Source of the DNA: an uncultured virus (IMG/VR IMGVR_UViG_3300020056_000009)
Taxonomy: Duplodnaviria; Heunggongvirae; Uroviricota; Caudoviricetes
Strand: one strand, 5' to 3'
Virus record (IMG/VR): IMGVR_UViG_3300020056_000009
DNA length: 64,000 bases
Both the position numbers and the translations under genes were made by a program. The notes beneath the pieces are model-generated. The model had not been told where the DNA came from, ran no database searches, and saw only the letters and a list, made by a program, of their open reading frames with translations. Shown piece by piece: positions 14,885 to 56,757 of the stretch (the stretch's first letter is position 1; the number at the start of each line of letters is the position of its first letter).

Positions 14885-14941
14885 AACTATAAATAGTGGA
14901 AAAGCAAAAAATAAAATAACCCCCCAAAGGAGAGATAAAAA

Positions 14942-41568: not shown

Positions 41569-44500
41569 TCAAAAATCTAAAGTTTGTTGTTTGCCTTTAC
41601 TCGGATCTTCAAAAGTTGATTCTACCCATTGACTCACATATTCATATAGTTGAGTAATATAGGGTTCACAGCCATATCGATCGATAATATCGCCCATAAG
41701 CCCATCGTATTTACTTACCGCACCATGACTTACAGTCATAATTAGGTTTCCTGGACACGGCACTTCAACTTCTTCTCCGGTGAAACTATCTCGGGTTTTC
41801 CCGGTAATAGTCATGCATTTCCCGCTAATCGGCACTCGCCGGTATTTGGCACCACATTTTGTGCAACGCACCTTTTGTTGTCCAAAGGCTCTCAGATTAC
41901 CACGCATATCTCGAATCAAGTGCGTATCAATTAGTTTAGCCGATTGCTTGCGATTATTAACCGCAAATAAGGTTTCTCCCAAAGCAAATTGCCCCATAGT
42001 TTTCTGCCTCATACTTAGATTGAGGTCTTTATCATTATACGGATTCCATTCCGGACCCTGATTACAATCTTCGGTATCGTGGGTAAACCCAAATCCCTCA
42101 CTTTCCCCGGGAGTTCCGAGTCGTAATTCTGCAATTTCAATTCCTGTCTTTAAGGCTTCCTTAGGGCTGGGAAGATCTGTCCAAGTAAGGTCATAAAACT
42201 CTTTAGTGTATTTCCAACTGGTATCTACATTGAGAGCCTCTTTATCGATTTCCGAAGCATTAATTCCCATCGTAAGAATTAAGGGAGCATCCATCTGACC
42301 ACCACGACTTCTTGGCAAGAACTTTTTGCTAAAGTTGAGCAATCCTTCAGTCAGCATAATAATAGCATCAATATCGCCATCACAATTACGGCGTTTGGCA
42401 GCATGAAAGAACGGATGACCATAGTGACCCTTGACATCACAGAACCCAATAATACGAGCCAAGATAGCCCCTGAAGTGTGTGGGGCAATGCCCATAATCA
42501 ACTGACCTTGTAAATCTTCTGGCGTTGCCACATTATAATACGGCTTCATACCATATAGTTTTACCAATAGGTCATCAGTAAACTGACATACCCGAATTAG
42601 ATCTTCCACACAATTTTGAGGAATAACGACATCTTGGGTAAAAATCTCACAAGTATCATTTTCAGAATCAACTAAATATCCCAATTGACGAGCCTTGTCT
42701 ACCGACAATCCAATTTCTTTTGGTCTAAAGTGCGTCATCGTAATATCTACCATATCAAACCGAATAGTTCCATCACGAAACACCGAAACCTCGTGCTTAC
42801 TTCTCAAAATCCCTTTTTCCATAGGTTCGGTAATGCCTTCAGAGTTCTTTACGGTTTCTACACCTTTTACCTTTGGCGGAGTAGTTACCTCACAGCGTTC
42901 CAAAGCCGATTCCCAAATCTGATTCATATCTACCGATCGCCACTTCTTTTCGTGATAATTAGTAGCCACCGGGTCGCCATGTTGAAGACAATAACTTAGG
43001 TGGGTTTCTTGCTTACACTTGGGACAAAATCTGGAAGAGATACCAACCTTTTCATCTTTAGGGGCTGCCGTGTTAATCAACTTGGTGTTACCACCGCTTT
43101 TGCCAATAGGAAATAAACAATGAGCCCGACTGGGTTTCATATCACGCATTTTGCTGCCTTCGGGTTTACCCATACGAGCCCCAATACGATAAGTAGTGCG
43201 AGGAAGAATTTTAATTCCTGCTAATCGGCTTAGGTAATCCATAGGGTTTTCTTGGTCTTTAGGAGGAGATAGATTTCCCAACATATGCAAAATCAGAGAA
43301 TTCTCCGCACCCCACAGATTATTCTCCGAATCGATATTAATGTTAGCCCGATAAATTAATTGGTTATCACCATTATATTGTAATTTTTGTGCACAAAGCG
43401 AAGGATGACAATTACTCAATAATTGATAAATCTCTTTTGCGGTTAGATCTTGCCATCCTGCTGCCACATATTCAGGATTCAAAGGAACTTTATACACCTT
43501 ACTTTGTTGCACCGACTCAATAAAATCCCTGGGGAAAGATATACCCTGTTCGGCTAACACCTCACGGTGCCACTCGGGAACATAAGGTGACTTCATAAGT
43601 GGGTGATTATTTTCTAAAAATTCTCCCACAGGAACTAAAAGTTCTCCTAAATCCCATACTTGACGAATGTTGTATTCTTGGTCATTAGGCATCGCCAAAA
43701 CGATTTCATTAGCATCTTGCACCCGGTGGGCAGAACCATCTAACCATTCGACATACGGCCCTTGAATAGTATCACACGGCGTTACCACGGTGCCTTTGCC
43801 CGGACGCTCATACTTCATTTGAGTTCCGATCGAAACAAACCCGCTGGTAGCCTTCATGGTAGCGGGATGACACGCCGTAGTCGCCAATCCTGCCAATCGG
43901 CTACGACCATATCGGAGTCTAAAACCACCTTCGGCCATCGGCATACTAAAAATTGGTCGTCCTGCCAACACTTCAGCCATATATTTGGGATTAGGTTTAA
44001 TTTCTGCGGCTCCTTTGTTAGTCTTCAAAAATTGGTTTAGCCAATCCCAACCATCCAATTGTAATTGGTCCACATATTTTAGGATTTTAGGGGCTTTCAG
44101 CACTAACCCTTCGCACATAACCAAGAGAGCACCTTCTCTAACCTTGTTATCTTTAACTCGGGCCAAATCACGCTGTCCAGTAACTTCCGTTCCTACGCCT
44201 TCACCATCCACGAAAATAGGGCAGTTGCCTGCCAAGATCTCTAATTCAGGATTAGAGGGTCGGTATTGTAAACCTCGATAAATGCTGACTTCTTCTTTAT
44301 ATCGCTCTACTTCTTCATAGGTGGCAACGGCCACCCCTAAATCAAAGTCACGACGCAAGATATCCGCAATCAAAACTGATAGGGCTTGTCCAGTGCCCCC
44401 GGCACTCCGAATTGGACCAGCATAATTAACGGCTAAGCAAGAGGTTCCATCCTGATTAGTAATTACACGGCAACTCACCACACCTTCCAACGGGGCTACC

Positions 44501-45042
44501 AAAATGCCTTCGGTTAATACCGCCAACCCTGCACAAATACCGTGATACATACATAGGGCTTGTCTGACACGATCTCCGGATTTAGAACTGCTTTGAAATT
44601 CCTGCAAAGTTTCTTGGATAGTATTGCTTAAGACTTGTGGCCCATAGGCTAAAATATACCCGGCTCCACCACAGTCATCACAACTCATAAACCCTCGTCC
44701 ACGCTTGATTTCTCCCGTTCCTGTGCAAACTTCACAATTATTTTTAATACCATAAAGATAAGATTCCGCACAGACAATTCGAGCAATATCCAAAGCCATT
44801 AGTTCCCGATTACCATCGTATTTTTCATTGAGTTCTCGGATTTGGGCGGCTGTGTTACGGTCATGCAAAAACTTCAACAATTTTTGAGTTCGTTCTGCAA
44901 GGTCGGTTGCCATAGGAATCTCGATCTCTAATTGCGGGTCATAGCCTTGCGATTTGGCTTGATTGACCATATCATAGGCTTGATAACAACCCTCGTGTAG
45001 TTTTTGACGATATTCCTCTTCGGAAATACGCTTCGCAACCAT
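41569..45042 (-). CDS. polC: DNA polymerase D large subunit (DP2)
   Basis: TEGILVAPLEG, YAGPIRSAGGT, GGFRLRYGRSR, GTQMKYERPGK, IGARMGKPE, FRDGTIRFD, APHTS, catalytic HAAKRRNCDGDID, GGQMDAPL, GNLRAFGQQKVRC; C-terminal PIP-like QQTLDF. Confidence 0.97.
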   Translation of the reverse strand: MVAKRISEEEYRQKLHEGCYQAYDMVNQAKSQGYDPQLEIEIPMATDLAERTQKLLKFLHDRNTAAQIRELNEKYDGNRELMALDIARIVCAESYLYGIKNNCEVCTGTGEIKRGRGFMSCDDCGGAGYILAYGPQVLSNTIQETLQEFQSSSKSGDRVRQALCMYHGICAGLAVLTEGILVAPLEGVVSCRVITNQDGTSCLAVNYAGPIRSAGGTGQALSVLIADILRRDFDLGVAVATYEEVERYKEEVSIYRGLQYRPSNPELEILAGNCPIFVDGEGVGTEVTGQRDLARVKDNKVREGALLVMCEGLVLKAPKILKYVDQLQLDGWDWLNQFLKTNKGAAEIKPNPKYMAEVLAGRPIFSMPMAEGGFRLRYGRSRLAGLATTACHPATMKATSGFVSIGTQMKYERPGKGTVVTPCDTIQGPYVEWLDGSAHRVQDANEIVLAMPNDQEYNIRQVWDLGELLVPVGEFLENNHPLMKSPYVPEWHREVLAEQGISFPRDFIESVQQSKVYKVPLNPEYVAAGWQDLTAKEIYQLLSNCHPSLCAQKLQYNGDNQLIYRANINIDSENNLWGAENSLILHMLGNLSPPKDQENPMDYLSRLAGIKILPRTTYRIGARMGKPEGSKMRDMKPSRAHCLFPIGKSGGNTKLINTAAPKDEKVGISSRFCPKCKQETHLSYCLQHGDPVATNYHEKKWRSVDMNQIWESALERCEVTTPPKVKGVETVKNSEGITEPMEKGILRSKHEVSVFRDGTIRFDMVDITMTHFRPKEIGLSVDKARQLGYLVDSENDTCEIFTQDVVIPQNCVEDLIRVCQFTDDLLVKLYGMKPYYNVATPEDLQGQLIMGIAPHTSGAILARIIGFCDVKGHYGHPFFHAAKRRNCDGDIDAIIMLTEGLLNFSKKFLPRSRGGQMDAPLILTMGINASEIDKEALNVDTSWKYTKEFYDLTWTDLPSPKEALKTGIEIAELRLGTPGESEGFGFTHDTEDCNQGPEWNPYNDKDLNLSMRQKTMGQFALGETLFAVNNRKQSAKLIDTHLIRDMRGNLRAFGQQKVRCTKCGAKYRRVPISGKCMTITGKTRDSFTGEEVEVPCPGNLIMTVSHGAVSKYDGLMGDIIDRYGCEPYITQLYEYVSQWVESTFEDPSKGKQQTLDF

Positions 45043-45351: not shown

Positions 45352-45819
45352 ATGGCTAAACCACAAAAAACTAATAATGATTGGCTAATGCAACGCACCG
45401 GATTGCTTATTGTCTATGCTTGGGTTCTCCTCGCCGTCGGTTTCTTCGGCCTCACGGCATGGGACATGAAGTATTTGGACAACTCTGAACAGTATGTCTC
45501 AATCTTGGCTATTATCGGTGGTCCAGCCTTGCTTATTGTCACCAAGATCTTGGAAACTTGGAATCAAGAAAAGGGTGCTCAACTGCAAGACTATGAATCA
45601 CAAGCAGGCCACGAAAGAGATATGGATGCTATTCGGGTTCGTCACGCTGCGGACATGGAACGCAATCCTCATCAAGAATATCATGCCGAACAAGCGGCTA
45701 CTGATGGGGCTCAAAACACTCGTATAGACACTATGGAAGAACAATTGGCCGAAGCGGTTGCAGAAATTGTTATGCTGCGTGAAGAATTATCTGCTTCTAA
45801 TAAGAAGAAGAAGGAGTGA
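45352..45819 (+). CDS. membrane protein (2 TM) with coiled-coil tail
   Basis: Two TM segments; YHAEQ motif. Confidence 0.75.
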   Translation: MAKPQKTNNDWLMQRTGLLIVYAWVLLAVGFFGLTAWDMKYLDNSEQYVSILAIIGGPALLIVTKILETWNQEKGAQLQDYESQAGHERDMDAIRVRHAADMERNPHQEYHAEQAATDGAQNTRIDTMEEQLAEAVAEIVMLREELSASNKKKKE

Positions 45820-46022
45820 TAACTATGGGATGGCGTGAACAACGAGCCGTATTGCGAGATAAAACTCCTTGCGATACGCAAGAACCTAATCAAAACATCA
45901 AAACCATGGCTCAAAAAATTGATTTGTCTACCCTTACCAAATCACGATTGATTGAACTCTGTGAAGCCAAAGGATTGTCTACCAGTGGCACTAAAGCAGA
46001 ATTAGTAACTCGATTGTCGTGA
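45816..46022 (+). CDS. SAP-domain protein
   Basis: LTKSRLIELCEAKGLSTSGTKAELVTRL. Confidence 0.75.
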   Translation: MITMGWREQRAVLRDKTPCDTQEPNQNIKTMAQKIDLSTLTKSRLIELCEAKGLSTSGTKAELVTRLS

Positions 46023-46023
46023 G

Positions 46024-47259
46024 GTGATTAATATAACCGAAGTAACTGATGAAATCCGTGAGAAAGCCAAAGTTATCGCTGAGGCTACGGGAAGATCTGT
46101 GCAATCAGTTATTGATGACCTTATGGATGATGGTATCGTAAACCTTTCTAATGAAGAAAAGAAGGATAAAGATTTAGTTACTCAACTTAAAGAAGCCGCC
46201 GAATTGATTACTACGGTGCAATCCATTAATCAACAAGTTACTAAAAACACCGTTCTCAACGGTGGAGACAACAAAACTGAGGTCAAAGTGGAAACCACTT
46301 TAGAAGGTGACATTGTCGATCGAGCCATTGAATCGGCACAACGCAAAGCCGATAACATCAAAAAACTGATTCTTACTTTGGCCCCGATTTTCCTATTATT
46401 AACGGGTGGTGCTGGTTTAGAAGTTCTCGGAATTACTGACATGGTGGGTTCGGATGACGACAATTATGACCCGTATAACTATGAAGTAGTTTGGGGTTGC
46501 ACCGTTTGGGATGCTGAAAATTACAATCCCGATGCTACTGAAGATGACGGTTCTTGTTGGTGGGACGATGGCGGTGGAGGCAACGAAACCAATAATTGTA
46601 ATCCTGATTGGTGGTGGCAAAATGAAGCCATTTTTGACCATGACCACAACGGACAAGGATATAACAACGACCTTCGTGTGCAAGTGGACTTCCGAGATTT
46701 AAACCAATGTAATATCCACATGAACAACGGCTACTTTGAAATCATGGTCGGAGATGATTCCCGAGTCTTAGAATATGATTTTCACAATGAATTTATCATT
46801 AACGAACATTACCTTGATCTCGCTCCCGGCGATTACTATGTCACCGTAGATTATTATACCTATGATGGTTCCTCTTGGTCGGGTCCAACCGCATGGATCA
46901 CGATGGAATCCGAGCCGACTTGTGCAACGGACTTGATTCACAAAGACGCTGAATTGTATTTGATTAACGGCAACGAATTAGAAGTCGCCATGATTATTCA
47001 ATCCAACAACGATTGTGAAGACGACATAGATTTCATGTTTAGCCTATATCACAATAACACTTACCAAAGCACCGTTGATTACGGAGTCTTACCCACATAT
47101 ACGGTATCCGGAACGGGCGAATACCGAATCACTTTGGCTCATAGCGATTGGAAAAACCTCGGAGAAGGTCTTTGGAATCTTGAAACCCGATTTTACACCG
47201 AATCCGATGGTGAAGTGTGTTGCATTATGACTAACAAAATTGAAGTCAAGAACGATTAA
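46024..47259 (+). CDS. membrane protein with extracellular Cys-motif and Ig-like domains
   Basis: Central TM; GCTVWDAENYNPDATEDDGSC motif; beta-rich C-terminus. Confidence 0.75.
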   Translation: MINITEVTDEIREKAKVIAEATGRSVQSVIDDLMDDGIVNLSNEEKKDKDLVTQLKEAAELITTVQSINQQVTKNTVLNGGDNKTEVKVETTLEGDIVDRAIESAQRKADNIKKLILTLAPIFLLLTGGAGLEVLGITDMVGSDDDNYDPYNYEVVWGCTVWDAENYNPDATEDDGSCWWDDGGGGNETNNCNPDWWWQNEAIFDHDHNGQGYNNDLRVQVDFRDLNQCNIHMNNGYFEIMVGDDSRVLEYDFHNEFIINEHYLDLAPGDYYVTVDYYTYDGSSWSGPTAWITMESEPTCATDLIHKDAELYLINGNELEVAMIIQSNNDCEDDIDFMFSLYHNNTYQSTVDYGVLPTYTVSGTGEYRITLAHSDWKNLGEGLWNLETRFYTESDGEVCCIMTNKIEVKND

Positions 47260-47260
47260 A

Positions 47261-47419
47261 TCACTCTGTCATTTCTGCCATACGGTCACTAAGCAGCAAG
47301 AGTGCTGATGCCCATAGACCGACGAAGATACCGAGGTTCTCGTCATGTGCAAAGTATACAGCGATGCTTCCTAAGATAGAAGCGAGGCTTGCTCCAAGAC
47401 CAATCTTTTTCCAATTCAT
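47261..47419 (-). CDS. small 2-TM membrane protein (not in ORF track)
   Basis: MNWKKIGLGASLASILGSIAVYFAHDENLGIFVGLWASALLLLSDRMAEMTE* (52 aa); GGAGGTGA SD; ATGA overlap. Confidence 0.75.
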   Translation of the reverse strand: MNWKKIGLGASLASILGSIAVYFAHDENLGIFVGLWASALLLLSDRMAEMTE

Positions 47420-47895
47420 TCCATTTCACCTCCGTTTACATGGTTTACAATCATTTTAATTAGTTCTGCCTTACGAGGACGACCCGTAATATCTACGCCC
47501 AATTCCTTTAGGCGTTCACGAAGTCCGGCTACGGTTAGGTCTTCAAGATCCTCAATGGCTACATCAAGGTCGGCCTTAGCCTCTTCTACGGCTTCGGAAA
47601 TTACTTCAGCAACCTCAGATAAATCTCCCTCTTCTACGGCTTCTGCTACTTCTTCAGCAGTATCTTCAAGGCGTTCTACCACATCTTCCACAAGGTCTTC
47701 TACCTTGTCTTCCCATTCGTCAGGAATATCCAAGCCCGTAGCATCTTCCAATTGGTCGATAGCATCTTGAATCTCTTCTGAAAGAGTTTCTACTACCTTA
47801 CCACGATTGGCTTGCCACCAATGAGTAAGATATCCAGCGGCGGCACCGCCAAGTCCAATCAATGCGTCTACTACCATAGGGTCTAAAGTTGTCAT
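47416..47895 (-). CDS. N-terminal TM, acidic coil and C-terminal SAP/HeH-like domain
   Basis: ATG at 47895 is 30 nt from TATATATAG; LTVAGLRERLKELGVDITGRPRKAELI. Confidence 0.75.
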   Translation of the reverse strand: MTTLDPMVVDALIGLGGAAAGYLTHWWQANRGKVVETLSEEIQDAIDQLEDATGLDIPDEWEDKVEDLVEDVVERLEDTAEEVAEAVEEGDLSEVAEVISEAVEEAKADLDVAIEDLEDLTVAGLRERLKELGVDITGRPRKAELIKMIVNHVNGGEME

Positions 47896-47970
47896 AATAA
47901 TCACTTCTGTGACGACCTATATATACCTTTGGAGATAAGATATAAATATAATTGAAGAATCATATTTTTC

Positions 47971-48492
47971 ATGCAATGCCCTTGTGGAATCACTTTGGGA
48001 TCTACCTCAGATTTTGTAGAAGAAGATTATTGTAGTTATTATTGTCGTCGGTTTTATTCCGAAGGCTTGCAAAAAGTTCCTCTTTCGGATTATAAAAAAC
48101 ATAAAAACCAATGGAAATATCCTCTTATTTCTCACAATTGTGATTGGTGTGGCAATCCTAAAGATCTCCGATATTCTGATTCTTCAGGTGCTAACGGTAA
48201 TGGTTCCGGAAGATTTTGTTCTCGGGAATGTTTCTATACTATGCACCGAGAAGGCCGCCGTAAAACTAAAGTTAGATACACGCTTTTAAGAATTCTTAGT
48301 CAGCGAGGAAGACTTCATCGTGACGCTATCACTTATTTATTTTCTCGTCATGAACCTCGACACGGTAGAACCTTAAATCAAGTAGTTTCCCTATTATCCA
48401 TTATGGTTCGACGAGGAATGGTAACTAAACATTCTAACAATGATTATGAATTAGTAGACTCCCGACCTATCGGACAATTAGCCGCAATCTAA
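47971..48492 (+). CDS. zinc-finger plus winged-helix-like protein, putative regulator
   Basis: CPCG..YCSYYC, CDWC..RFCSREC; C-terminal LLRIL...LLSIMVRRGMV...YEL. Confidence 0.65.
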   Translation: MQCPCGITLGSTSDFVEEDYCSYYCRRFYSEGLQKVPLSDYKKHKNQWKYPLISHNCDWCGNPKDLRYSDSSGANGNGSGRFCSRECFYTMHREGRRKTKVRYTLLRILSQRGRLHRDAITYLFSRHEPRHGRTLNQVVSLLSIMVRRGMVTKHSNNDYELVDSRPIGQLAAI

Positions 48493-48525
48493 AGTTATAT
48501 ATAGGTAATCGCACCACTATAATTT

Positions 48526-48627
48526 GGTGTCTTTGGCTCCGAGGCTCATCGAACCTCTGGGGAAAGGGAGCCATTGCCTTCGGTGTGTGGGCTTAGACCG
48601 TTAGTTCGGTCCACCGAGGGCGGCACC
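48526..48627 (+). ncRNA. unclassified structured ncRNA (~102 nt, three-way junction)
   Basis: TATATATAG begins exactly 30 nt upstream (48496) and no ORF follows. Stems: GGTGTC/GGCACC, TGGCTCC/GGAGCCA, GAGG/CCTC, GCCTTCGGTG/CACCGAGGGC, GACCG/CGGTC. G-U pairs favour the plus strand. Confidence 0.7.
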
Positions 48628-48629
48628 AT

Positions 48630-49202
48630 CTATTCTATATCCTTCAATTCATCAACATTGATTTGGATTTCATAATCTGCCCACAGATAAGTCATTTTTT
48701 CATATTCCTCTCGATGACTACTTATTATTTCTTGGTCTTGGCCGGCATTTAATCGTAATACTTTGATTCCTGAAGGATCAATTTCTAAATCGAATTCGTA
48801 TAAAATCTCATTAATTTCGTATATTACAGAACTTATAAACTGTTCCAAATCTTTTTCGGCTTGGTTGTAAGTTTTATCAGACAAAACGGAAACCTTAAAT
48901 TGTGTATTCCACCTCTTCGGCGGTGATGCTTCAGATCTACTACTATCCCAATCAATATATTCCAAACCATATAAAATTTCGTCCCACAATTCTTTAGCAT
49001 CTTTGACGATGTCAAATGAACAATCCCAATTCCAATCACTCGGACTATCTTCGGGACCATAACTTACTCCTGCTAAATGAATTTGATTAGATCCTATTAA
49101 TCCCCATGAGGACAATACCTCTCGGGCTTGCCTCCATTTCTTAGTATCGGCAAAAGGAGGATTTCCCATAGGGCTCCAATTAATCATGGGATTCTCCTCC
49201 AA
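48630..49202 (-). CDS. hypothetical protein
   Basis: AT-rich minus-strand operon; W/D/E-rich. Confidence 0.7.
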   Translation of the reverse strand: MEENPMINWSPMGNPPFADTKKWRQAREVLSSWGLIGSNQIHLAGVSYGPEDSPSDWNWDCSFDIVKDAKELWDEILYGLEYIDWDSSRSEASPPKRWNTQFKVSVLSDKTYNQAEKDLEQFISSVIYEINEILYEFDLEIDPSGIKVLRLNAGQDQEIISSHREEYEKMTYLWADYEIQINVDELKDIE

Positions 49203-49740
49203 ACAAAATACTTAATGAGCCCCAAGATGTTGGATCCCATTGTGGTATCGAGATACTCCATCCCGGGAGGGGATTTATCTCAAAAATTACTACTCGTTCA
49301 TCTTCAGAGGCTGACATCGTTTGACGAGCGATAGCATCATTATCGTGATAAATGGTAAATCTATCTGAACCGTAATACCTATCATACCAATCTGACAATT
49401 GTGATTGATAATAATGATACAAATAATGAAGATGATCTCTATTACTTATGGCATCATAATGACCCATCCAAATAATTTTGGCTAAACTTTCTGGATTTAT
49501 TTCCTCAAGTTCTTGAGTTTGCAAATAACCCTCTCTGAAAACATCTCTAAAATCCCTTGATAACTCTACTGGCAAATTTATATCCAAACTTTTGATTTGG
49601 GTAATCCAACCTTTTTCGGAAATCTTCATAACATATTTTCCCTTTAATCCTGATTGCATTACTTGTTTAACCCATAATCTTTTATTAAACCACTTCGGAA
49701 GTTCTGAAAAATTAATCACAGCACCACCTCCATAAAACAA
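49180..49740 (-). CDS. hypothetical protein
   Basis: Operon member; the true start may be the GTG after GGAGGTG. Confidence 0.7.
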   Translation of the reverse strand: MFYGGGAVINFSELPKWFNKRLWVKQVMQSGLKGKYVMKISEKGWITQIKSLDINLPVELSRDFRDVFREGYLQTQELEEINPESLAKIIWMGHYDAISNRDHLHYLYHYYQSQLSDWYDRYYGSDRFTIYHDNDAIARQTMSASEDERVVIFEINPLPGWSISIPQWDPTSWGSLSILFGGESHD

Positions 49741-50210
49741 TAAACATCGCTTTCCTCATATATTTTATTATGATAAGATTGATGATCCCATATTTCCATA
49801 GTCACCTTTTTTGAATATTTTAACCATTTTGGAAGTTCTCCTATTTTTTGTTCATCAAAGGTATTTCCATTATCATCAACCCCTGCAAATTGGATTAGAG
49901 GCTGGTTTGCAAAATCTAATACTCGTCGCCAATACCATTCACTACCTACAAGTTTTTGATATATATCTCGGGACTTCTTATTTTCATCGCTTGGGCTTAA
50001 CTTTTTGAGTCGCTCTTTGATATTCTCTTTAAATTCTTTTCCTTCTAACTCAAAAGTTTCAAATATTTCTTTCTGAGATGATAATAAATACATAGGATGA
50101 CTATTAAATATTATTTCTCTCTCGTAGTTTTCCCAATCAATATTGTTATAATTGTAAGCAGCGATAAAGACAAACCATACCGTCTGACCTGCAAACGGTT
50201 GATTAATCAT
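49716..50210 (-). CDS. hypothetical protein
   Basis: TATATATAG at -30. Confidence 0.75.
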   Translation of the reverse strand: MINQPFAGQTVWFVFIAAYNYNNIDWENYEREIIFNSHPMYLLSSQKEIFETFELEGKEFKENIKERLKKLSPSDENKKSRDIYQKLVGSEWYWRRVLDFANQPLIQFAGVDDNGNTFDEQKIGELPKWLKYSKKVTMEIWDHQSYHNKIYEESDVYCFMEVVL

Positions 50211-50241
50211 GTCGAATGGTTCCTCATTCGACTATATATAA

Positions 50242-50445
50242 TTACCCAATCTTGAATTGTTTCAATCGATTCCATAACGAATCGTTAGATTGGTCTAAAT
50301 GAGTTTCACAATAATAGTAATTAGTCCAATCACTAAATCCTTTACTTCGATCATATTTAATAAATCCCATCGGACTTAATCTTGATTCCCAATGGGCTGC
50401 TTCTCCACACACTTCGCATAATTTATTGGTGATTTCTTTTGGCAA
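50242..50445 (-). CDS. small zinc-binding protein
   Basis: CEVCG...YYCETH. Confidence 0.6.
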   Translation of the reverse strand: MPKEITNKLCEVCGEAAHWESRLSPMGFIKYDRSKGFSDWTNYYYCETHLDQSNDSLWNRLKQFKIG

Positions 50446-50501
50446 TATAATCCCAAATTAGTATAGTTGTTTCTGGTATATCTATTTTGCGGTCTTATGC
50501 A

Positions 50502-51455
50502 TCACTCATTGTTAAGAGAATATCTTAGAGTCACCGTTTTAGGACCGGCAGAAGGATAAGTAGTCAATCCCGATCTTCTCATAAACATAACTTGAAATCT
50601 TCCTTGTGCTCTCTTGCCCCCGGCAGCACTAATGGCTCTTTTCAAAACCCAATTACCTTTAGTTCCCAAAGAATCATCAACACCCATATTGATTTTATCC
50701 ATGCGACCATCCATATGAATATCATAGCGTTCCAAAAGATTTTCTAACTCTGTGATTTTGAAGTTTCCTGTGCGTCCGGAAGCAGTAGCGGCGGCGGCTA
50801 CTTTAGCATTAGTTCCAAATAAGGCTACTAACGCCGCATTGGTAATCGTAGCCGTTTCCAATTCTTTCTTCAGTAAATCCATAATTGGTTTTTTGTATTT
50901 TGCAATTAGACTTTGCGGATCTAAAGTTGATTCAAAAGAATCGAAATCCACTTGCCACCAAATATCCGCATAAGCGGGATCTGCTTTTGTAGCCGAGGCT
51001 TTGGGACCCATCTGTGTATCGTGGCCTTGCACCGTATCTCCCAATCCCAACAAATATCCATAGGTAACCACCGAATAATCGGATACCCATACAAAGTTAG
51101 GTTCCCAGCGTTTTGTAATTGGATTTTTCTTTAGAATCGGATAATATTTACCCCCATATCCGAATCGTTGGTATCGCATTTTCTTAACTGAAGTATGCAG
51201 ATTTTTGGCTGCTTGAGTAGCGGATTCACCATCCATCATACGCCTGAGGAACTTATCACGCAATTCTTTAGGAGGTAATACCATGCGATACTGACCCCCG
51301 GGAACTTTCTTGATTTTAATTCCCACCGATTGAAAATAATTCTTGAGAGTGCGTGAAGTGGTTTTAGCACGACGGGCGGCGGCTGATAATCCCAAGTCTT
51401 GTTGATCCATTAGCCTTTGGGCTACTCGACAACGGCGAATAGTCTCCGGCTTCAT
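50502..51455 (-). CDS. basic protein with two HTH-like motifs
   Basis: ATG at 51455 is 30 nt from TATAAATAG; GLSAAARRAKTTSRTL and GESATQAAKNLHTSV. Confidence 0.65.
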   Translation of the reverse strand: MKPETIRRCRVAQRLMDQQDLGLSAAARRAKTTSRTLKNYFQSVGIKIKKVPGGQYRMVLPPKELRDKFLRRMMDGESATQAAKNLHTSVKKMRYQRFGYGGKYYPILKKNPITKRWEPNFVWVSDYSVVTYGYLLGLGDTVQGHDTQMGPKASATKADPAYADIWWQVDFDSFESTLDPQSLIAKYKKPIMDLLKKELETATITNAALVALFGTNAKVAAAATASGRTGNFKITELENLLERYDIHMDGRMDKINMGVDDSLGTKGNWVLKRAISAAGGKRAQGRFQVMFMRRSGLTTYPSAGPKTVTLRYSLNNE

Positions 51456-51488
51456 AGTTGTCAATTTCATCACCATCTATTTATAGTT

Positions 51489-53171
51489 TCACAAATCATA
51501 CAACATAATTCTACCATCTACAATATCCATGACTCCCATATCAATTAATTTGGTTTTCATATCATCGCTTAACGACAATCCTAAATCCGACATACGCTTT
51601 TTAGCCTCCAACAAATTATCATATTGTCCACTATCGGAATTACGCACCAAAGCCGCATACAATTGTTGCACCTTGCCATCAGCCTCCATGAGATCCACAT
51701 TAAGAGGAATGTTCTCAATAAGGGTTTTCAAGGAGGTATTAAACAAGGTTTTGGCTTGATAAAGGTGATTAGAATTAACTACGGAATCTCCATTCAATCG
51801 GGCTAAGCCTTTACACAAGTTAATGAATTGTTGGAACTTACGGTTTTCTCGTTCTGCTCGTTGAAGAAATACCTTTTTGAACTCTTCCGATTCTTCTACG
51901 GAACTAAACTCTTGCCAAATAAAATCTTCAATAACATCCATATCAGGATTTAAACGACTCACATAACGAAGATATTCCTTAAAGAATCGTCGCCACATTT
52001 TCAATTCGGCTTTGGCTTGCGGGGTTTCAAACTTGCCGGTCATGTTATCCATGATCTTCCTTTTTACGAATTTATCAGCGTTATCATCACCATAGGTCAA
52101 ACTCATTTGAGCAAAGATTAAAGTCATACGGCTAATCATTTGGAAGGTATACTCTTTAAAGACATCCAACATCGCCAACTTATCCATCTTATCAGAATAG
52201 GATTTATCAGGATTGCCCCAAAAACTCATATTAAGACAAGCATCACGCTGCACATCGATTTGACCTTTCTGCATAGTATAATAACCATTAGCCAACATAT
52301 TCATAAGTTCACCAAAGACATCTGAACCCCATGTTTGAAACTCGGATACAGCAATACGCTCGTTATTCATTTTTCCAATCAAACCTAATTCTACGGAGTT
52401 AAGATCTTCGCCACTCATGGCTCCAAACAATCCTGGAATTGTGCATAGTTTTCCTGTCGAGGCTACCCCTGTGGGCACCAAAGGTTGCATAATGTTTTCG
52501 ATTAGGTGGTCTTTGCCTTCACCCATGCTGGTAATCACCGCAATATGAATCATATCCGTTTTCTTAAACGGGCTTAAACAATTCAATAACACGGCTTGCT
52601 TAATGCTATCTGCCGCATAAACATGACGCCAAAGAGTTTTATCATCCATCATCAATTTGAGTGGACTTACCTTCTTTTCTTGACATACTGCCAAAAACTT
52701 TTGAAACTGTTCTGTCGTCAGTTGGCTTTGCTTATCGTCATTCTGTGGTTCTATCTTTTCGACTACAAACACCTTTTCTCCTTGATGGAGTTGGTAACTC
52801 CCGAAAATTTGGATTTGATTACCATTACGCTGTGAATCAGTCAAAAGGCTGAGAGCCGTCGTCAAATCGGCAGGAGGCATACCCCCAGGAATGAGAGTAA
52901 CTCCATTGTGAGCCATACATTTGACGGCATTACTACCATCGCTAACGACAAAGTGAATAGCAATCTTCTCATAAGGGTCTAACAACGATCGAGTCGGTTT
53001 AGCACCTTTCCGAGATTTCACCAACGGTAAGTCTTCAATCTTGATACAAATTCCCGAACCCTTTCGAGGACGAGAACTAATCTTAGACTGATAAACTTCG
53101 GCTACCGTAGCATCATAGTCCGTAAAGGAGTTTACACAGGATTCGACGAATTGGGTCAATTCCGAGTCCAT
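51489..53171 (-). CDS. divergent MCM-family AAA+ helicase
   Basis: IHIAVITSMGEGKD (Walker A-like), STGKLCTIPGLFGA, IAVSEF (Walker B-like), MSFWGNP, MISRM, RKFQQFINLCKGLARL..V...HL..A..LF. Confidence 0.75.
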   Translation of the reverse strand: MDSELTQFVESCVNSFTDYDATVAEVYQSKISSRPRKGSGICIKIEDLPLVKSRKGAKPTRSLLDPYEKIAIHFVVSDGSNAVKCMAHNGVTLIPGGMPPADLTTALSLLTDSQRNGNQIQIFGSYQLHQGEKVFVVEKIEPQNDDKQSQLTTEQFQKFLAVCQEKKVSPLKLMMDDKTLWRHVYAADSIKQAVLLNCLSPFKKTDMIHIAVITSMGEGKDHLIENIMQPLVPTGVASTGKLCTIPGLFGAMSGEDLNSVELGLIGKMNNERIAVSEFQTWGSDVFGELMNMLANGYYTMQKGQIDVQRDACLNMSFWGNPDKSYSDKMDKLAMLDVFKEYTFQMISRMTLIFAQMSLTYGDDNADKFVKRKIMDNMTGKFETPQAKAELKMWRRFFKEYLRYVSRLNPDMDVIEDFIWQEFSSVEESEEFKKVFLQRAERENRKFQQFINLCKGLARLNGDSVVNSNHLYQAKTLFNTSLKTLIENIPLNVDLMEADGKVQQLYAALVRNSDSGQYDNLLEAKKRMSDLGLSLSDDMKTKLIDMGVMDIVDGRIMLYDL

Positions 53172-53221
53172 AGTAATCCCTCATGCCATCACCTATTTCT
53201 ATTTTCAAGTGTCCGCCTCAA

Positions 53222-53449
53222 ACCTGTGGGCCGCAGACAGGTGTTCGGTGGTGAAACCAAACTCCCATCAGTTCAAATTATCCCTTGCGTAGTGTAGTGG
53301 CACTTTTTAAACCGAGTTGCCTTACGGCACACGGAGGGTCAAGGGTTTTGACCGCAACCCCTAAAGGCTGCGTGGTGGAACTTGAACCATAGATCTCAAG
53401 TCATTCCCAAGACGGCTAAGCCGCCTGAGTCCTTAAGATTGGCGAGGAC
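53222..53449 (-). other. multi-hairpin intergenic element between ssb-like and mcm-like genes
   Basis: At least 7 stem-loops, including TGCC-GTAA-GGCA, GGTCAA/TTGACC, CGCAGCC/GGTTGCG and ACTTGA/TCAAGT. Confidence 0.6.
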
Positions 53450-53453
53450 GATT

Positions 53454-53936
53454 TCACTCGTCGTCGGAAACCACTTGGTCAGCAGGGACTTCGGGGAGTT
53501 CATCACGAGTGATGCTACCACGAGGTAGTGCGTTGAAGGTGTTGAAGGTGCGTCCAGGGTTCTTCTTGGACTCTTCCTTTTGGCGAAGGAAATCAATCTT
53601 CACAGGAAGGTGGTATACCTTCTTGCCATCGTCACCTTCGGTGATAATGTTGTTGTTGTTGATGAAACGCTCAAAGTCGTTTCGCTCGTAGCCACCAAGA
53701 TAGACCTTTTCACGGCGTCCGTTCTCAAGGTTTACCATGCGAAGACAGTAGTTCTCACCGTTGAGGTCAGAATCAACCTTGTTAAAGGATACCAAAGCGT
53801 AGTTGCGATAGATTTCACCAAAGGTAGGCTTAATCGTATCATACCGGGTCTGAGGACCACGGTTGCTGCTCGGTGCTGGTCGGCTGGCAGTTAGTTCGTC
53901 CATAAATGCTGCAATATCATCTGCGTTGTTACTCAT
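53454..53936 (-). CDS. putative single-stranded DNA-binding (OB-fold-like) protein
   Basis: Adjacent to the MCM-like gene; beta-rich core with ESKKNPGRTFNTF; acidic tail; high-expression codon bias. Confidence 0.5.
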   Translation of the reverse strand: MSNNADDIAAFMDELTASRPAPSSNRGPQTRYDTIKPTFGEIYRNYALVSFNKVDSDLNGENYCLRMVNLENGRREKVYLGGYERNDFERFINNNNIITEGDDGKKVYHLPVKIDFLRQKEESKKNPGRTFNTFNALPRGSITRDELPEVPADQVVSDDE

Positions 53937-54075
53937 TTTTTTCACTTCCTTTTTTTGTTATCCCGTTTTGTTTCTTGTCGGGTGTAATAGATAGTGTCTG
54001 CCACCACCCTTATATACCTTCTGAGTTTGTCAAATAAAGCAAAATATTATATAGTAGTGCGAAGCAATTATACCT

Positions 54076-56757
54076 ATGGGTAGCCCTGCATTTCTTGATA
54101 TTAATACGGGAAAAGTGTCTACTTCGGGCACACATCCCGTAGTATTTATTGAAGATGGTTGGACTTCAGTTATTTGCGATCTTCGAGAATGGATGATTAA
54201 AGACCCTCGTGATGCCGTTCCCCCGGCATTTATTAAACATACAGATGTTAAACTTGATTTCTTGGGTGACCAAAAAGATGCTGAAAAATGGGCTAATCGT
54301 TTTGAAGATGCTTTAGATAATATCAGTTGTGATTATTTCGTTATTTCGCAATCCGGCAATATGTTATCAGTAATCCTAAATAATTCAGCCACACCTTGTT
54401 CTGCTACTCAAGTTATACTCACCAGCGGAGGAGATGCTGCGGCTCGTAACGCCTGTTATGGTGATATCATGGGTGGTAAGCGTATTGAAGGTGGCGATTG
54501 GAATGAAAAACAAAAAGGCGGCGGTGGAGGCGGCGGCGGTGGTAGCGGAGGACCTCCTTCACCATCACCCCCCAGTTTAGGTGGTTCCCCAAGTGGACAA
54601 GGTTCAGGAAGCGGAAGCGGAAGTGGTTCTGGTCAGGGCGGAGATACTGGAGGGACAGGTTCCGGAATGAGTGGTGGACAAGGAGATGGAAGTGGATCGG
54701 GTCAAGGACAAGGTTCCGGTCAAGGAGCGGGTGGAGATGGCTCTGGCGAAGGTGGACAAGGTTCCGAAAGCGGAAGTGGTGAGTGTGGTTCTTGCGGTGG
54801 TTCCGGAATGAGTGGTGGTCAAGGAGATTCTGGAGATGGAGATGGCTCTGGCCAAGGAGATGGTGGAGAAGGACAAGGTCAGGGTCAAGGAGATGAATCT
54901 GGTGACCAAGAAGGAGTCTGTGGTGATTGCGGTGGCACGGGAGAAGAAACTCCTGTTAATGCGGCCCCCGCAGACCAAACCATGAGTGATGTTCAAGAAA
55001 AGGCAGCACAACAAGCCCAAAAAGATTTCGATGCTCAACAAGAAGAGCGTAGTGAAAAGTGTCAGGCTGCGGCTGATGAAGCCGAACAACAAGCCGATGC
55101 TGGTAATCCTCAAGAGGCTACTGATGCTGCTTGCGATGCCAAAGAATGTGGTAATCCCAATTCTCAAAAGGATAAAGATAACATGGCTCGTGCAGAAGAG
55201 GCTGCTAACAAGGCTATCGATGACGCTGAAGATAATGGATCTCTGTCTTCCGAACAAGCCCAAGAACTTCGTGACCAATTATCAGATTCTGAACCCAGCA
55301 ATCAATCTGAGGCTCAAAAGATGGCTTCCGAGGCACGACAAATGGCCCAAGATGCCCAAATGAATCAAGACCCTGAGGGTTTGAAAGATGCGGCAGATAA
55401 ACTCCATGAGGCTGCTGAAGAAGCCAACAACAGTTCTGATAATGCCTCTGTTTCTCAAGCCGCACAAGATGTGGCCGATATTGCTGGTAACATGGGTGAT
55501 GAAGATATTCAAGATGATTTACAAGAACTTGCTGATGAATTATCTCAAAAATCTGGAGAACGCAAGTGGGGAATTAAAGAAGAAGATTCGGGAGAATTTT
55601 TGACTGATGAACATGGCAAGCCTCTTGAGTTCGATTCTCAAGAAGAGGCTCAAGAAATGATTGACGACTCTGGAGAAGATGGCCTCACCTGCGAACCTCT
55701 TCCTAACCGATTGGATACGGCTTTCAATGAGGCCAATGATGATGGTAGCATGGATCCTAACGACCCCGAAACTCGCAATGAGTTTGATGAACAATACGAT
55801 AAAACTATGGATGAGTTGGCCGAAGGCCAAATCTGCACCGTTGTTAATTTGGATGGAGTATTTACTTCGGCTCACGAAGTTTATGAAGAATTATTGAATT
55901 ATGTTTACTTGTTTAATCCTATGCTTCATAGTATGATGTCTCAAGCCAAACAAGTTCCTGTCAAAATTGCTGTGCAACGAGAAAGAACTCCCATTCACTT
56001 GGAAGTTTTGAATTTTGAAGATTTGGATGAAGACCAAATTAAAAACCTTATTGATAATTATCTCGACAATGAGGATTACACCGATATTTCTATTCACTCT
56101 ATGGACGAAGGCGATACCCAAAATGGTAATCCTGATGGATGGCTACCAAAATGGGCGGCTCTAACATGGAGTCTCCCCGGAACCTTAGCAGATTCTTTTG
56201 GTATCAATTCTCAAGTCCGAGTTATTGAAGAACTTGGAGATTGGGTTAAAGTGCGTCCTCTTGGAAATCTTTCAGGATATATGGCTCTCCTAAAATCTAA
56301 CTTAGACTGTTATGCTGAACCTCCTGCCGAACCCGGCGAAATGGAAGACTTATTAGATCTTCCTTCTATGCCTACTACAACTGAAGAACTCAAGAAGATT
56401 TTGGAAGAGGCTCGTCTAAAGAAACAACGCAAGATGCGACAAACCCAAGAAGTATCTTCTGATGCTATGGTTGATTGGCGAGTCAATATTCTTACGGGAG
56501 AACGAAAGTCGTTTACCAAAGACCAATTATTAGCCGGTGAAGGTGGTAGAGGATGGGTATCTATCAGCATGATAGATGGTGTTTATTCCGATCTTATTGG
56601 ACTCTGCGAACTTTTGGACCTCAATAACATTAGTTATACCGTAGTATCACAAACGGTGGGACCCACTAAAATTCAAACTGATGCTTCTGGACTGAGCATG
56701 GCAACCAAATTAGGAAAACCCTTGACTATTAGAAATGACACGGTGGGATATCTATGA
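54076..56757 (+). CDS. large protein with G/S/Q low-complexity linker, CxxCGG motifs and acidic helical region
   Basis: 893 aa; TATA variant at -30. Confidence 0.85.
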   Translation: MGSPAFLDINTGKVSTSGTHPVVFIEDGWTSVICDLREWMIKDPRDAVPPAFIKHTDVKLDFLGDQKDAEKWANRFEDALDNISCDYFVISQSGNMLSVILNNSATPCSATQVILTSGGDAAARNACYGDIMGGKRIEGGDWNEKQKGGGGGGGGGSGGPPSPSPPSLGGSPSGQGSGSGSGSGSGQGGDTGGTGSGMSGGQGDGSGSGQGQGSGQGAGGDGSGEGGQGSESGSGECGSCGGSGMSGGQGDSGDGDGSGQGDGGEGQGQGQGDESGDQEGVCGDCGGTGEETPVNAAPADQTMSDVQEKAAQQAQKDFDAQQEERSEKCQAAADEAEQQADAGNPQEATDAACDAKECGNPNSQKDKDNMARAEEAANKAIDDAEDNGSLSSEQAQELRDQLSDSEPSNQSEAQKMASEARQMAQDAQMNQDPEGLKDAADKLHEAAEEANNSSDNASVSQAAQDVADIAGNMGDEDIQDDLQELADELSQKSGERKWGIKEEDSGEFLTDEHGKPLEFDSQEEAQEMIDDSGEDGLTCEPLPNRLDTAFNEANDDGSMDPNDPETRNEFDEQYDKTMDELAEGQICTVVNLDGVFTSAHEVYEELLNYVYLFNPMLHSMMSQAKQVPVKIAVQRERTPIHLEVLNFEDLDEDQIKNLIDNYLDNEDYTDISIHSMDEGDTQNGNPDGWLPKWAALTWSLPGTLADSFGINSQVRVIEELGDWVKVRPLGNLSGYMALLKSNLDCYAEPPAEPGEMEDLLDLPSMPTTTEELKKILEEARLKKQRKMRQTQEVSSDAMVDWRVNILTGERKSFTKDQLLAGEGGRGWVSISMIDGVYSDLIGLCELLDLNNISYTVVSQTVGPTKIQTDASGLSMATKLGKPLTIRNDTVGYL

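Follow-up and report, generated by a model that had tools for sequence, protein, structure and literature searches.

A 64,000-nucleotide (nt) stretch of DNA from the IMG/VR virus record IMGVR_UViG_3300020056_000009 contains a small GC-rich element, here named RNA-A, between two convergent open reading frames (ORFs) at 47971-48492 (+) and 48630-49202 (-). The stretch, referred to as the window, comprises bases 62001-126000 of a 142-kb linear record with a CheckV completeness estimate of 48%. RNA-A is a conserved RNA core of 102 nt on the plus strand (48526-48627) and represents a previously uncatalogued small RNA gene family. It is carried by large virus-like elements of marine archaea that form one lineage. 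The neighbouring genes form a replication block. They encode the zinc-ribbon/winged-helix protein P0001 directly upstream, a SAP-domain protein (47416-47895), PolD DP2 (41569-45042, minus strand) and an MCM-like helicase (51489-53171, minus strand). Many further products of the window have no Pfam family. The stop codon of the convergent downstream gene, at 48630, abuts the RNA-A tail. The GC content of RNA-A is 0.62, compared to 0.368 across 48001-50000, in agreement with a first-pass annotation of the sequence, which had described a GC-rich RNA in AT-rich flanks.

The RNA gene is preceded by an archaeal TATA-type promoter (48491-48504, plus strand), consisting of AAGT and the word TATATATAG. 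This word occupies 48496-48504, and the first G of GGTGTC follows at 48526, exactly 30 nt further, with no ATG at this place. The coordinates given by the first-pass annotation, which regarded the word as the standard promoter of the genome, were thereby confirmed. The word occurs nine times in the window versus 0.58 expected, and a count of nine was reached by 0/100 shuffles. A looser word, TA[TA]A[TA]ATAG, is found at 32 sites. At 25 of these, an ATG at +30/+31 opens an ORF of at least 40 amino acids (aa), and the site at 48496 is among the seven that lack such an ATG-ORF. The spacing of the RNA-A promoter is the same as at these 25 leaderless ORFs. In the 28 copies of RNA-A described below, TATA[TA]ATAG is always present upstream of the first G of the RNA, at 30 nt in 14 copies (window included) and at 31 nt in 14. 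The stop codon of the P0001-type gene lies only a few bases ahead of the promoter in the relatives.

Further canonical promoter words without an ATG at +30/+31 are located at 14888, 30016, 35280 and 45292 (+), with an ORF starting 40-60 nt downstream. These four sites may mark the few leadered genes of the element or further non-coding starts.

Homologues, fold and covariation of RNA-A

Relatives of the locus were collected through the MCM-like helicase, for which 256 relatives at E <= 0.001 were present among the candidates scored. The alignment A1, built from 34 of them, was used for a search that supplied 3 viral loci and the best 80 of 265 metagenome loci encoding a relative. RNA-A was first located by blastn and nhmmer in the loci with the closest helicases, from which the covariance model R1 was built. 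Among 84 sources (1.19 Mb), R1 returned 28 strong matches with E <= 4.2e-15, corresponding to the window and 27 loci, and nine weak matches with E >= 0.0098. The copy in the window scores 98.1 bits with R1 and 85.7 bits with the improved model R2. The 28 copies comprise 18 distinct sequences of 81-103 nt that fall into four subgroups (1a, 1b, 2 and 3). The full 142-kb record contains a single copy.

All 27 loci with RNA-A carry a helicase at least 54% identical to that of the window. Twelve further loci of this clade contain neither RNA-A nor a P0001 gene, and each of them ends short of the expected place. No match to R1 or R2 was obtained in loci with helicases 44-50% identical. Look-ups in viral contigs with the single proteins P0001, P0002 and DP2 returned no close relative. 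One more RNA-A copy is found on a 136-kb contig (L133) filed under a bacterial metagenome-assembled genome (MAG). L133 and a 220-kb contig (L135) carry PolD DP2 relatives of 68% and 90% identity and are filed as Rickettsiales and Phycisphaerales MAGs, respectively; this filing is probably mis-binning.

Several other candidates were discarded. An exact-word scan of viral contigs with a 15-mer of the arm-1 loop hit 48 loci, none of which extends beyond 18 nt, as expected by chance. The same scan with the conserved cores CTCTGGGGAAAGGGAG and CTCAGGGGAAAGACYGA hit 1 and 13 loci, and 0/14 match R2 at E <= 0.01. Other occurrences of the invariant bulge word GGGGAAAG in the relatives are coding or chance; the coding sites lie in a G/S/E-rich ORF, in a conserved ORF after the helicase and, in subgroup 2, in a small ORF upstream of the helicase. 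Weak R1 and R2 matches in L057 (20291-20410 and 20320-20410) have a GC content of 0.44-0.46 and fall on a GGGGAAAG site that is conserved across relatives. We take them to be putative coding sequence.

The minimum-energy fold of 48526-48632 (-48.7 kcal/mol) is a three-way junction consisting of a closing stem and two arms, each tipped by a hairpin, with one-sided bulges of 9 nt on one arm and 10 nt on the other. It reproduces the closing stem GGTGTC(48526)/GGCACC(48627) and the two bulged arms of the first-pass annotation. All the following features are on the plus strand. The 5' strand of the closing stem, GGUGUC (48526-48531), is paired with GGCACC (48622-48627). In arm 1, the lower helix H2 is formed by GGCUCC (48535-48540) and GGAGCC (48567-48572), while the upper hairpin H3 (48541-48557) consists of GAGG, the loop CUCAUCGAA and CCUC. 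Between H3 and the 3' strand of H2 lies the one-sided bulge UGGGGAAAG (48558-48566, motif M1), containing the 8-nt word GGGGAAAG, which is identical across all 18 distinct homologues. Arm 2 (48576-48621) is composed of a base helix (48576-48585 with 48612-48621), the motif M2 UGUGGGCUUA (48586-48595) and an extra hairpin (48596-48611). The closing stem is followed by the pyrimidine/T-rich tail AUCUAUUCUAUAU (48628-48640), a possible termination zone; the tails of the relatives read ACCUCUUAUUC or ACCCUAUUCUC.

The homologues share a common plan. Its 5' half contains a 6-bp closing stem, 2-3 U-rich junction bases, a 6-bp H2 and H3 with a loop of 9-13 nt. The one-sided bulge NGGGGAAAG on the 3' strand of arm 1 and 2-4 junction bases form the middle part. 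Arm 2 follows, with a base helix of 7-10 bp and UGGRC then GCA, and leads over 0-1 base to the closing stem and the pyrimidine/T-rich tail. The core of H3 is GAG/CUC, with a fourth pair in some homologues, and all subgroups retain the UGGRC loop that tips arm 2. The arm-1 loop differs by subgroup (CAUCGAAC, CUUCGCACA or CU(U/A)CGCAA). In subgroups 1b and 3 (11/18 distinct homologues), arm 2 is reduced to a simple hairpin whose loop contains the motif; a second small hairpin after the UGGRC motif is present only in subgroups 1a (window, L053 and L054) and 2. The conserved single-stranded parts measure only 5-8 nt, the remainder is helix, and both ends of the RNA are held in a stem. Since the length differences (81-103 nt) are not multiples of three, RNA-A is not coding. 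A leaderless 24-codon GTG frame in the window was rejected on similar grounds, as it is not kept and the indels among homologues are not multiples of three. Compared by eye with their consensus, none of the K-turn, T-loop, hammerhead core and bulge-helix-bulge motifs fits RNA-A.

Covariation among the metagenomic homologues, a check proposed by the first-pass annotation, supports four helices: the closing stem, H2, H3 and the base of arm 2. The first three are covered by the alignment A4 of the 18 distinct sequences. In A4, 96.5% of 283 cells are paired, compared to 38-48% in controls with the 3' partners shifted by 1-3 columns; the proportion is 98.1% in the closing stem and 99.1% in H2. Double changes occur at six pairs (42 cells), and the observed covariation score was reached by 0/500 shuffles; two further measures, based on the number of pairs or of pair types, do not exceed the shuffled values. 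Pair 2 of the closing stem is G-C in 11 sequences, C-G in six and U-A in one, and four of the six H2 pairs show double changes. In H3, GAG/CUC forms standard pairs in 18/18 (one G.U), and the fourth pair is G-C in eight, U-A in three and unpaired in seven.

MAFFT and Infernal aligned arm 2 inconsistently, and its seven outermost pairs were therefore taken from the own fold of each sequence. The base helix has seven contiguous pairs in 18/18. This pairing is complete by construction, so only the double changes, found at 5/7 positions, count as evidence. Some of them separate near-identical sequences, such as L069 with C-G and L086 with U-A. G.U pairs make up 11/283 cells in A4 and 16/126 cells in the arm-2 base helix. 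On the other strand these would be A.C mismatches, and they thus fit only the plus strand, which is that of the promoter.

The first-pass annotation had further proposed a pseudoknot or switch, in which CTCAT (48545-48549) would pair with GTGGG (48587-48591) and CGAAC (48550-48554) with GTTCG (48604-48608). The words are present at these positions, but neither L054 nor subgroups 1b, 2 and 3 preserve the pairings. The loss of CGAAC/GUUCG in L054 occurs in a sequence that is otherwise alike at 99/104 positions. The hairpin bearing GUUCG is missing in 11/18 homologues, and the arm-1 loop is different in subgroups 2 and 3. A pseudoknot finds no support.

RNA libraries and known RNA families

Four metatranscriptome runs from four studies (X1-X4) were assessed, with contigs compared first to the window and then to L053. 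Contigs 100% alike to L053 place this strain in the runs, and a small share of the sequence words occurs in them. Uncovered parts of the stretch and the 'freshwater metagenome' label of the runs were not used as evidence. Following the metatranscriptome check suggested in the first-pass annotation, we found RNA-A covered by unstranded contigs in 4/4 runs. In X1, the contig over RNA-A has a word depth of 21.8, compared to 2.8-4.9 for the neighbouring contigs (~5x). The contigs in X1, X2 and X4 begin 4-36 nt inside the predicted 5' end and do not cross the promoter. Beyond the closing stem they continue for about 110-150 nt, a stretch that is antisense to the 3' end of a 161-aa ORF lying convergent to RNA-A in the L053 strain. 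The value of 102 nt thus describes the conserved core rather than the length of a transcript. For the ~102-nt RNA of the first-pass annotation, the core is supported and the 3' end is not. RNA-A is present in RNA libraries, which hints at its expression.

We consider it very probable that RNA-A is a genuine structured RNA gene. The promoter spacing in 28/28 copies, the four covarying helices and the G.U pairs that fit the plus strand only support the independently transcribed structured RNA that had been predicted. Some observations count against this assignment. The energy of the plus-strand fold is by itself moderately unusual (z = -2.79; 2/200 shuffles fold equally well), and the opposite strand of RNA-A also folds well (z = -4.09). 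The X3 contig bridges the promoter and RNA-A. The RNA-run contigs, being unstranded, cannot fix the start, end, strand or level of the transcript, and DNA carry-over is possible.

No Rfam family matches the whole window at gathering thresholds. In a permissive search (E <= 10) of 501 nt, only DUF3800-XI was returned, with 13.7 bits and E = 1.5, which is chance level. Representatives of two other subgroups gave nothing in one case and mir-3135 at 12.3 bits, also at chance level, in the other; the search spaces for the three subgroups were 121-501 nt. The Rfam covariance models of signal recognition particle (SRP) RNA, RNase P RNA and the known self-cleaving ribozymes have no match at E <= 10 in the three subgroups. 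The 5S ribosomal RNA (rRNA) model RF00001 (threshold 38 bits), positive in 14/14 control genomes, returned nothing from the whole record even at E <= 10. ARAGORN detects 0 tRNA genes in the window, and Rfam gives no tRNA or transfer-messenger RNA match. These searches uphold the claim of the first-pass annotation that the RNA is of no known class; a relationship to 5S rRNA or the SRP Alu domain, loosely suggested there, is not supported by any model match.

Like 5S rRNA, RNA-A is GC-rich and combines a closing helix with two arms that each contain an internal loop and end in a hairpin. It differs in length (81-103 nt versus about 120) and in its one-sided bulge. In 5S rRNA, five helices and conserved loops C and E are expected, whereas arm 2 of RNA-A is a plain hairpin in 11/18 homologues and a loop-C-like sequence is confined to subgroup 1. 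A different kind of likeness concerns the way in which RNA-A stands out. Klein, Misulovin and Eddy reportedly screened AT-rich archaeal genomes for GC-rich structural RNA genes in 2002, and RNA-A is likewise a GC island (0.62 versus 0.37) behind a TATA promoter. Unlike the RNAs of that screen, RNA-A is located on a virus-like element rather than in a cell, and it belongs to none of the families from such screens that Rfam catalogues.

The upstream protein and the surroundings of RNA-A

P0001 (47971-48492, plus strand; 173 aa) contains two Cys4 zinc ribbons and a C-terminal winged helix. A homologue is encoded directly upstream of RNA-A, on the same strand and ending just before the RNA promoter, in 27/27 loci. 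The family is characterized by two Cys4 ribbons of the CxCG...(F/Y)CSxxC type followed by the C-terminal domain. Compared to the PDB, the family profile matches archaeal eL24 (9e6q_AW) with E = 1.4e-5 over residues 57-105 (49 residues, second ribbon). The entry 9e6q is the Pyrobaculum calidifontis ribosome (bioRxiv 10.1101/2024.11.12.623245). The match of the profile to Haloarcula marismortui L24e has an E of about 0.09. The AlphaFold2 (AF2) model of P0001 has a mean pLDDT of 80.7, and Foldseek finds no PDB match to it at E <= 0.001; its top-ranking rows are Fur, DtxR, MarR and a cullin winged-helix domain. eL24 is a ribosomal protein that binds rRNA. The combination of an rRNA-protein-like zinc ribbon with a winged helix would fit RNA binding and, equally, a transcription factor.

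P0001 is a conceivable protein partner of RNA-A, a prediction that we regard as doubtful. In its favour are the adjacency in 27/27 loci and the second ribbon, which aligns with eL24 and, in 8/18 members, with zf-FCS fingers. The extra arm-2 hairpin is found exactly in the loci with a window-type P0001 (63-99% identity). These loci belong to two lineages only, which are not grouped together by the MCM-like helicase. Several findings argue against the partnership. In Pfam searches of 18 family members, zf-FCS is matched in 8/18 (best E 0.0021), DUF2116 in 5/18 and Ribosomal_L24e in 2/18 (E 0.14), all below the curated cut-offs. The winged helix resembles DNA-binding regulators in the best Foldseek rows. 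Six P0001 paralogues in three more distant records (2-3 per record; L097 and L110 are left out of this count) are not followed by any GC-rich element. The adjacency of protein and RNA may be plain conserved gene order. Finally, the window combines a subgroup-2-like P0001 with a promoter and arm 1 like those of subgroup 1 (subgroup 1b closest), and this mismatch means that protein and RNA recombined apart at least once in its lineage.

The surroundings of RNA-A are mosaic (window 45352-53936 and loci L053-L118). The left-hand genes, encoding P0001, the SAP protein (47416-47895) and the products of 46024-47259 and 45352-45819, are nearest to subgroup 2 with 63-86% identity. The right-hand genes (50502-51476, the helicase and 53454-53936) are nearest to subgroup 1b with 68-85%. 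From the 3' end of RNA-A to the conserved gene at 50502-51476, the region 48630-50210 (-) is a variable island across the relatives. It holds three genes in the window, four in L053, other genes in subgroups 1b and 2, and only a gap of ~270 nt in subgroup 3. In subgroup 1b, the word TATAAATA on the opposite strand is aimed into the 3' end of RNA-A (L055:6688 (+); same place in L059, L060, L063 and L064). It could drive an antisense transcript or mirror the promoter of the next gene. The cumulative GC skew of the window has its minimum (-0.55) near 54 kb, away from RNA-A. At this minimum, about 53500-54100, the genes diverge (53454-53936 minus, 54076-56757 plus), and replication or transcription may switch here.

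In more distant relatives there is another GC-rich element without an ORF, RNA-B, which measures about 126-148 nt and is represented by 13 distinct sequences. It is located at L103:4943-5090 (+), L050:13290-13431, L051:16704-16829, L104:8005-8142 and L106:7401-7548, with further loci in L112, L113, L126, L128, L129 and L132. A large gene (855 aa in L103) has its promoter immediately downstream of RNA-B, which directly follows a P0001 homologue in L103, L106, L108, L112 and L113. By eye, one of its hairpins shows compensatory changes (UGGGC-GUA-GCCCA, UGUUGC-GUA-GCAACA and UGUGGC-UC-GCCACA). Rfam has no match for RNA-B. It may be the positional counterpart of RNA-A. The two could not be linked: they share the words UGGACG and GGGG.GAA.G and a GAGG/CCUC hairpin, but in a different order. 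A relationship by circular permutation is speculation.

Possible functions of RNA-A

The compact, end-locked fold and the three short unpaired motifs suggest a protein-binding rather than a base-pairing RNA. We tentatively predict, at somewhat less than even confidence, that RNA-A acts as a stable protein-binding scaffold or decoy. Judged by helix lengths only, the two arms would lie side by side, with the bulge 6 bp and the arm-2 loop about 9-10 bp from the junction. The bulge GGGGAAAG and the arm-2 loop could then form one surface, possibly clamped by bulge adenines that dock on the G-C pairs below the loop of arm 2. This surface would be read by a protein, and RNA-A would function as a ribonucleoprotein (RNP) and not through extended base pairing. 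As the partner in such an RNP we predict P0001, the zinc-ribbon/winged-helix protein of the adjacent upstream gene.

Viruses of eukaryotes offer a precedent for this mode of action. Adenovirus virus-associated (VA) RNA I and the Epstein-Barr virus-encoded RNAs (EBERs) are abundant small structured RNAs that act by protein binding; VA RNA binds PKR and EBER1 binds L22. They are virus-borne, separately transcribed and about 100-170 nt long, and they end in a terminal stem and have a branched central domain without a long single-stranded seed, as does RNA-A. The differences are considerable. There is no sequence or model similarity, the promoter of RNA-A is archaeal TATA instead of Pol III, the host belongs to another domain, and the partner of RNA-A is only predicted. 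The phi29 prohead RNA (pRNA) is another virus-encoded three-way junction with a closing helix, two arms and its own promoter. In contrast to pRNA, where loop-loop complementarity defines the rings, such complementarity is not conserved in RNA-A. Moreover, RNA-A is located in a replication block with PolD and an MCM-like helicase and not beside a packaging ATPase or connector, and it has no Rfam match.

A more specific form of the scaffold can be imagined. RNA-A might be a subunit of a virus-built RNP with the eL24-like P0001, part of a kit that imitates or occupies the factor-binding side of the host ribosome and redirects translation. We find this distinctly improbable. If true, RNA-A would be the first case of an archaeal virus using a structured RNA in this way.

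Alternatively, RNA-A could be a decoy or mimic of a host RNA that binds a protein of the host, for example a ribosomal or defence protein, without involvement of P0001. A compact, end-locked fold with short invariant motifs would serve this purpose as well as the RNP with P0001, and the P0001 paralogues without an RNA weaken P0001 as the partner. The absence of similarity to any cellular RNA family in Rfam speaks against a mimic. R2, run unfiltered on two archaeal 23S rRNA loci, reached only 10.2 bits (E = 0.51), and the stalk-base (GAC) region of one 23S locus is unlike RNA-A by eye. We rate this alternative as unlikely.

There is little probability that RNA-A or its 3' extension is an antisense or trans-acting base-pairing regulator, for example of the convergent downstream gene. 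The extension of the L053-strain contigs across the 3' end of the 161-aa ORF would agree with this, as would the tail that abuts the stop codon of the convergent gene in the window. The downstream neighbour varies by subgroup, however, being a convergent gene, a same-strand gene or a 270-nt gap. The folded core is conserved and the tail is not, and the free conserved stretches do not exceed 8 nt. The unstranded contigs may also have merged two transcripts.

A cis-acting DNA or RNA element, such as a terminator or insulator, a recombination site at the edge of the variable island or an origin-associated structure, is equally improbable. RNA-A does lie between convergent genes in the window and borders a region of variable gene content, where the closest relatives of the left and right neighbours differ. 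Its own promoter at exact spacing in 28/28 copies, the strand-specific G.U pairs and the invariant unpaired 8-mer would not be expected of such an element, and the GC skew turns near 54 kb and not at RNA-A. Least probable of all is a very divergent or reduced known class (5S rRNA, tRNA-like, SRP Alu, minimal RNase P-like or self-cleaving ribozyme): the three-way topology is 5S-like, and the arm-1 loop CUCAUCGAAC of the window's subgroup is reminiscent of 5S loop C and GGGGAAAG of the GGAAAG of RNase P CR-I, resemblances that come from no tool, but the Rfam matches are at chance level, RF00001 and ARAGORN are negative, subgroups 2 and 3 lack the 5S-like loop and 81-103 nt is too short for 5S.

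Small structured RNAs belong to the textbook repertoire of eukaryotic viruses and of one group of phages. To our knowledge, none has been characterized for an archaeal virus, and neither such an RNA nor a marine virus-like element with PolD was described in the part of the literature consulted. The RNA-A family is well supported: it has a promoter, invariant motifs and four helices that covary, and it is present in metatranscriptomes. The large virus-like elements of the ocean on which it occurs form a widespread group, with PolD and an MCM-like helicase among their further genes. RNA-A is a small, synthesisable object with which RNA-based tricks of archaeal viruses may be probed.

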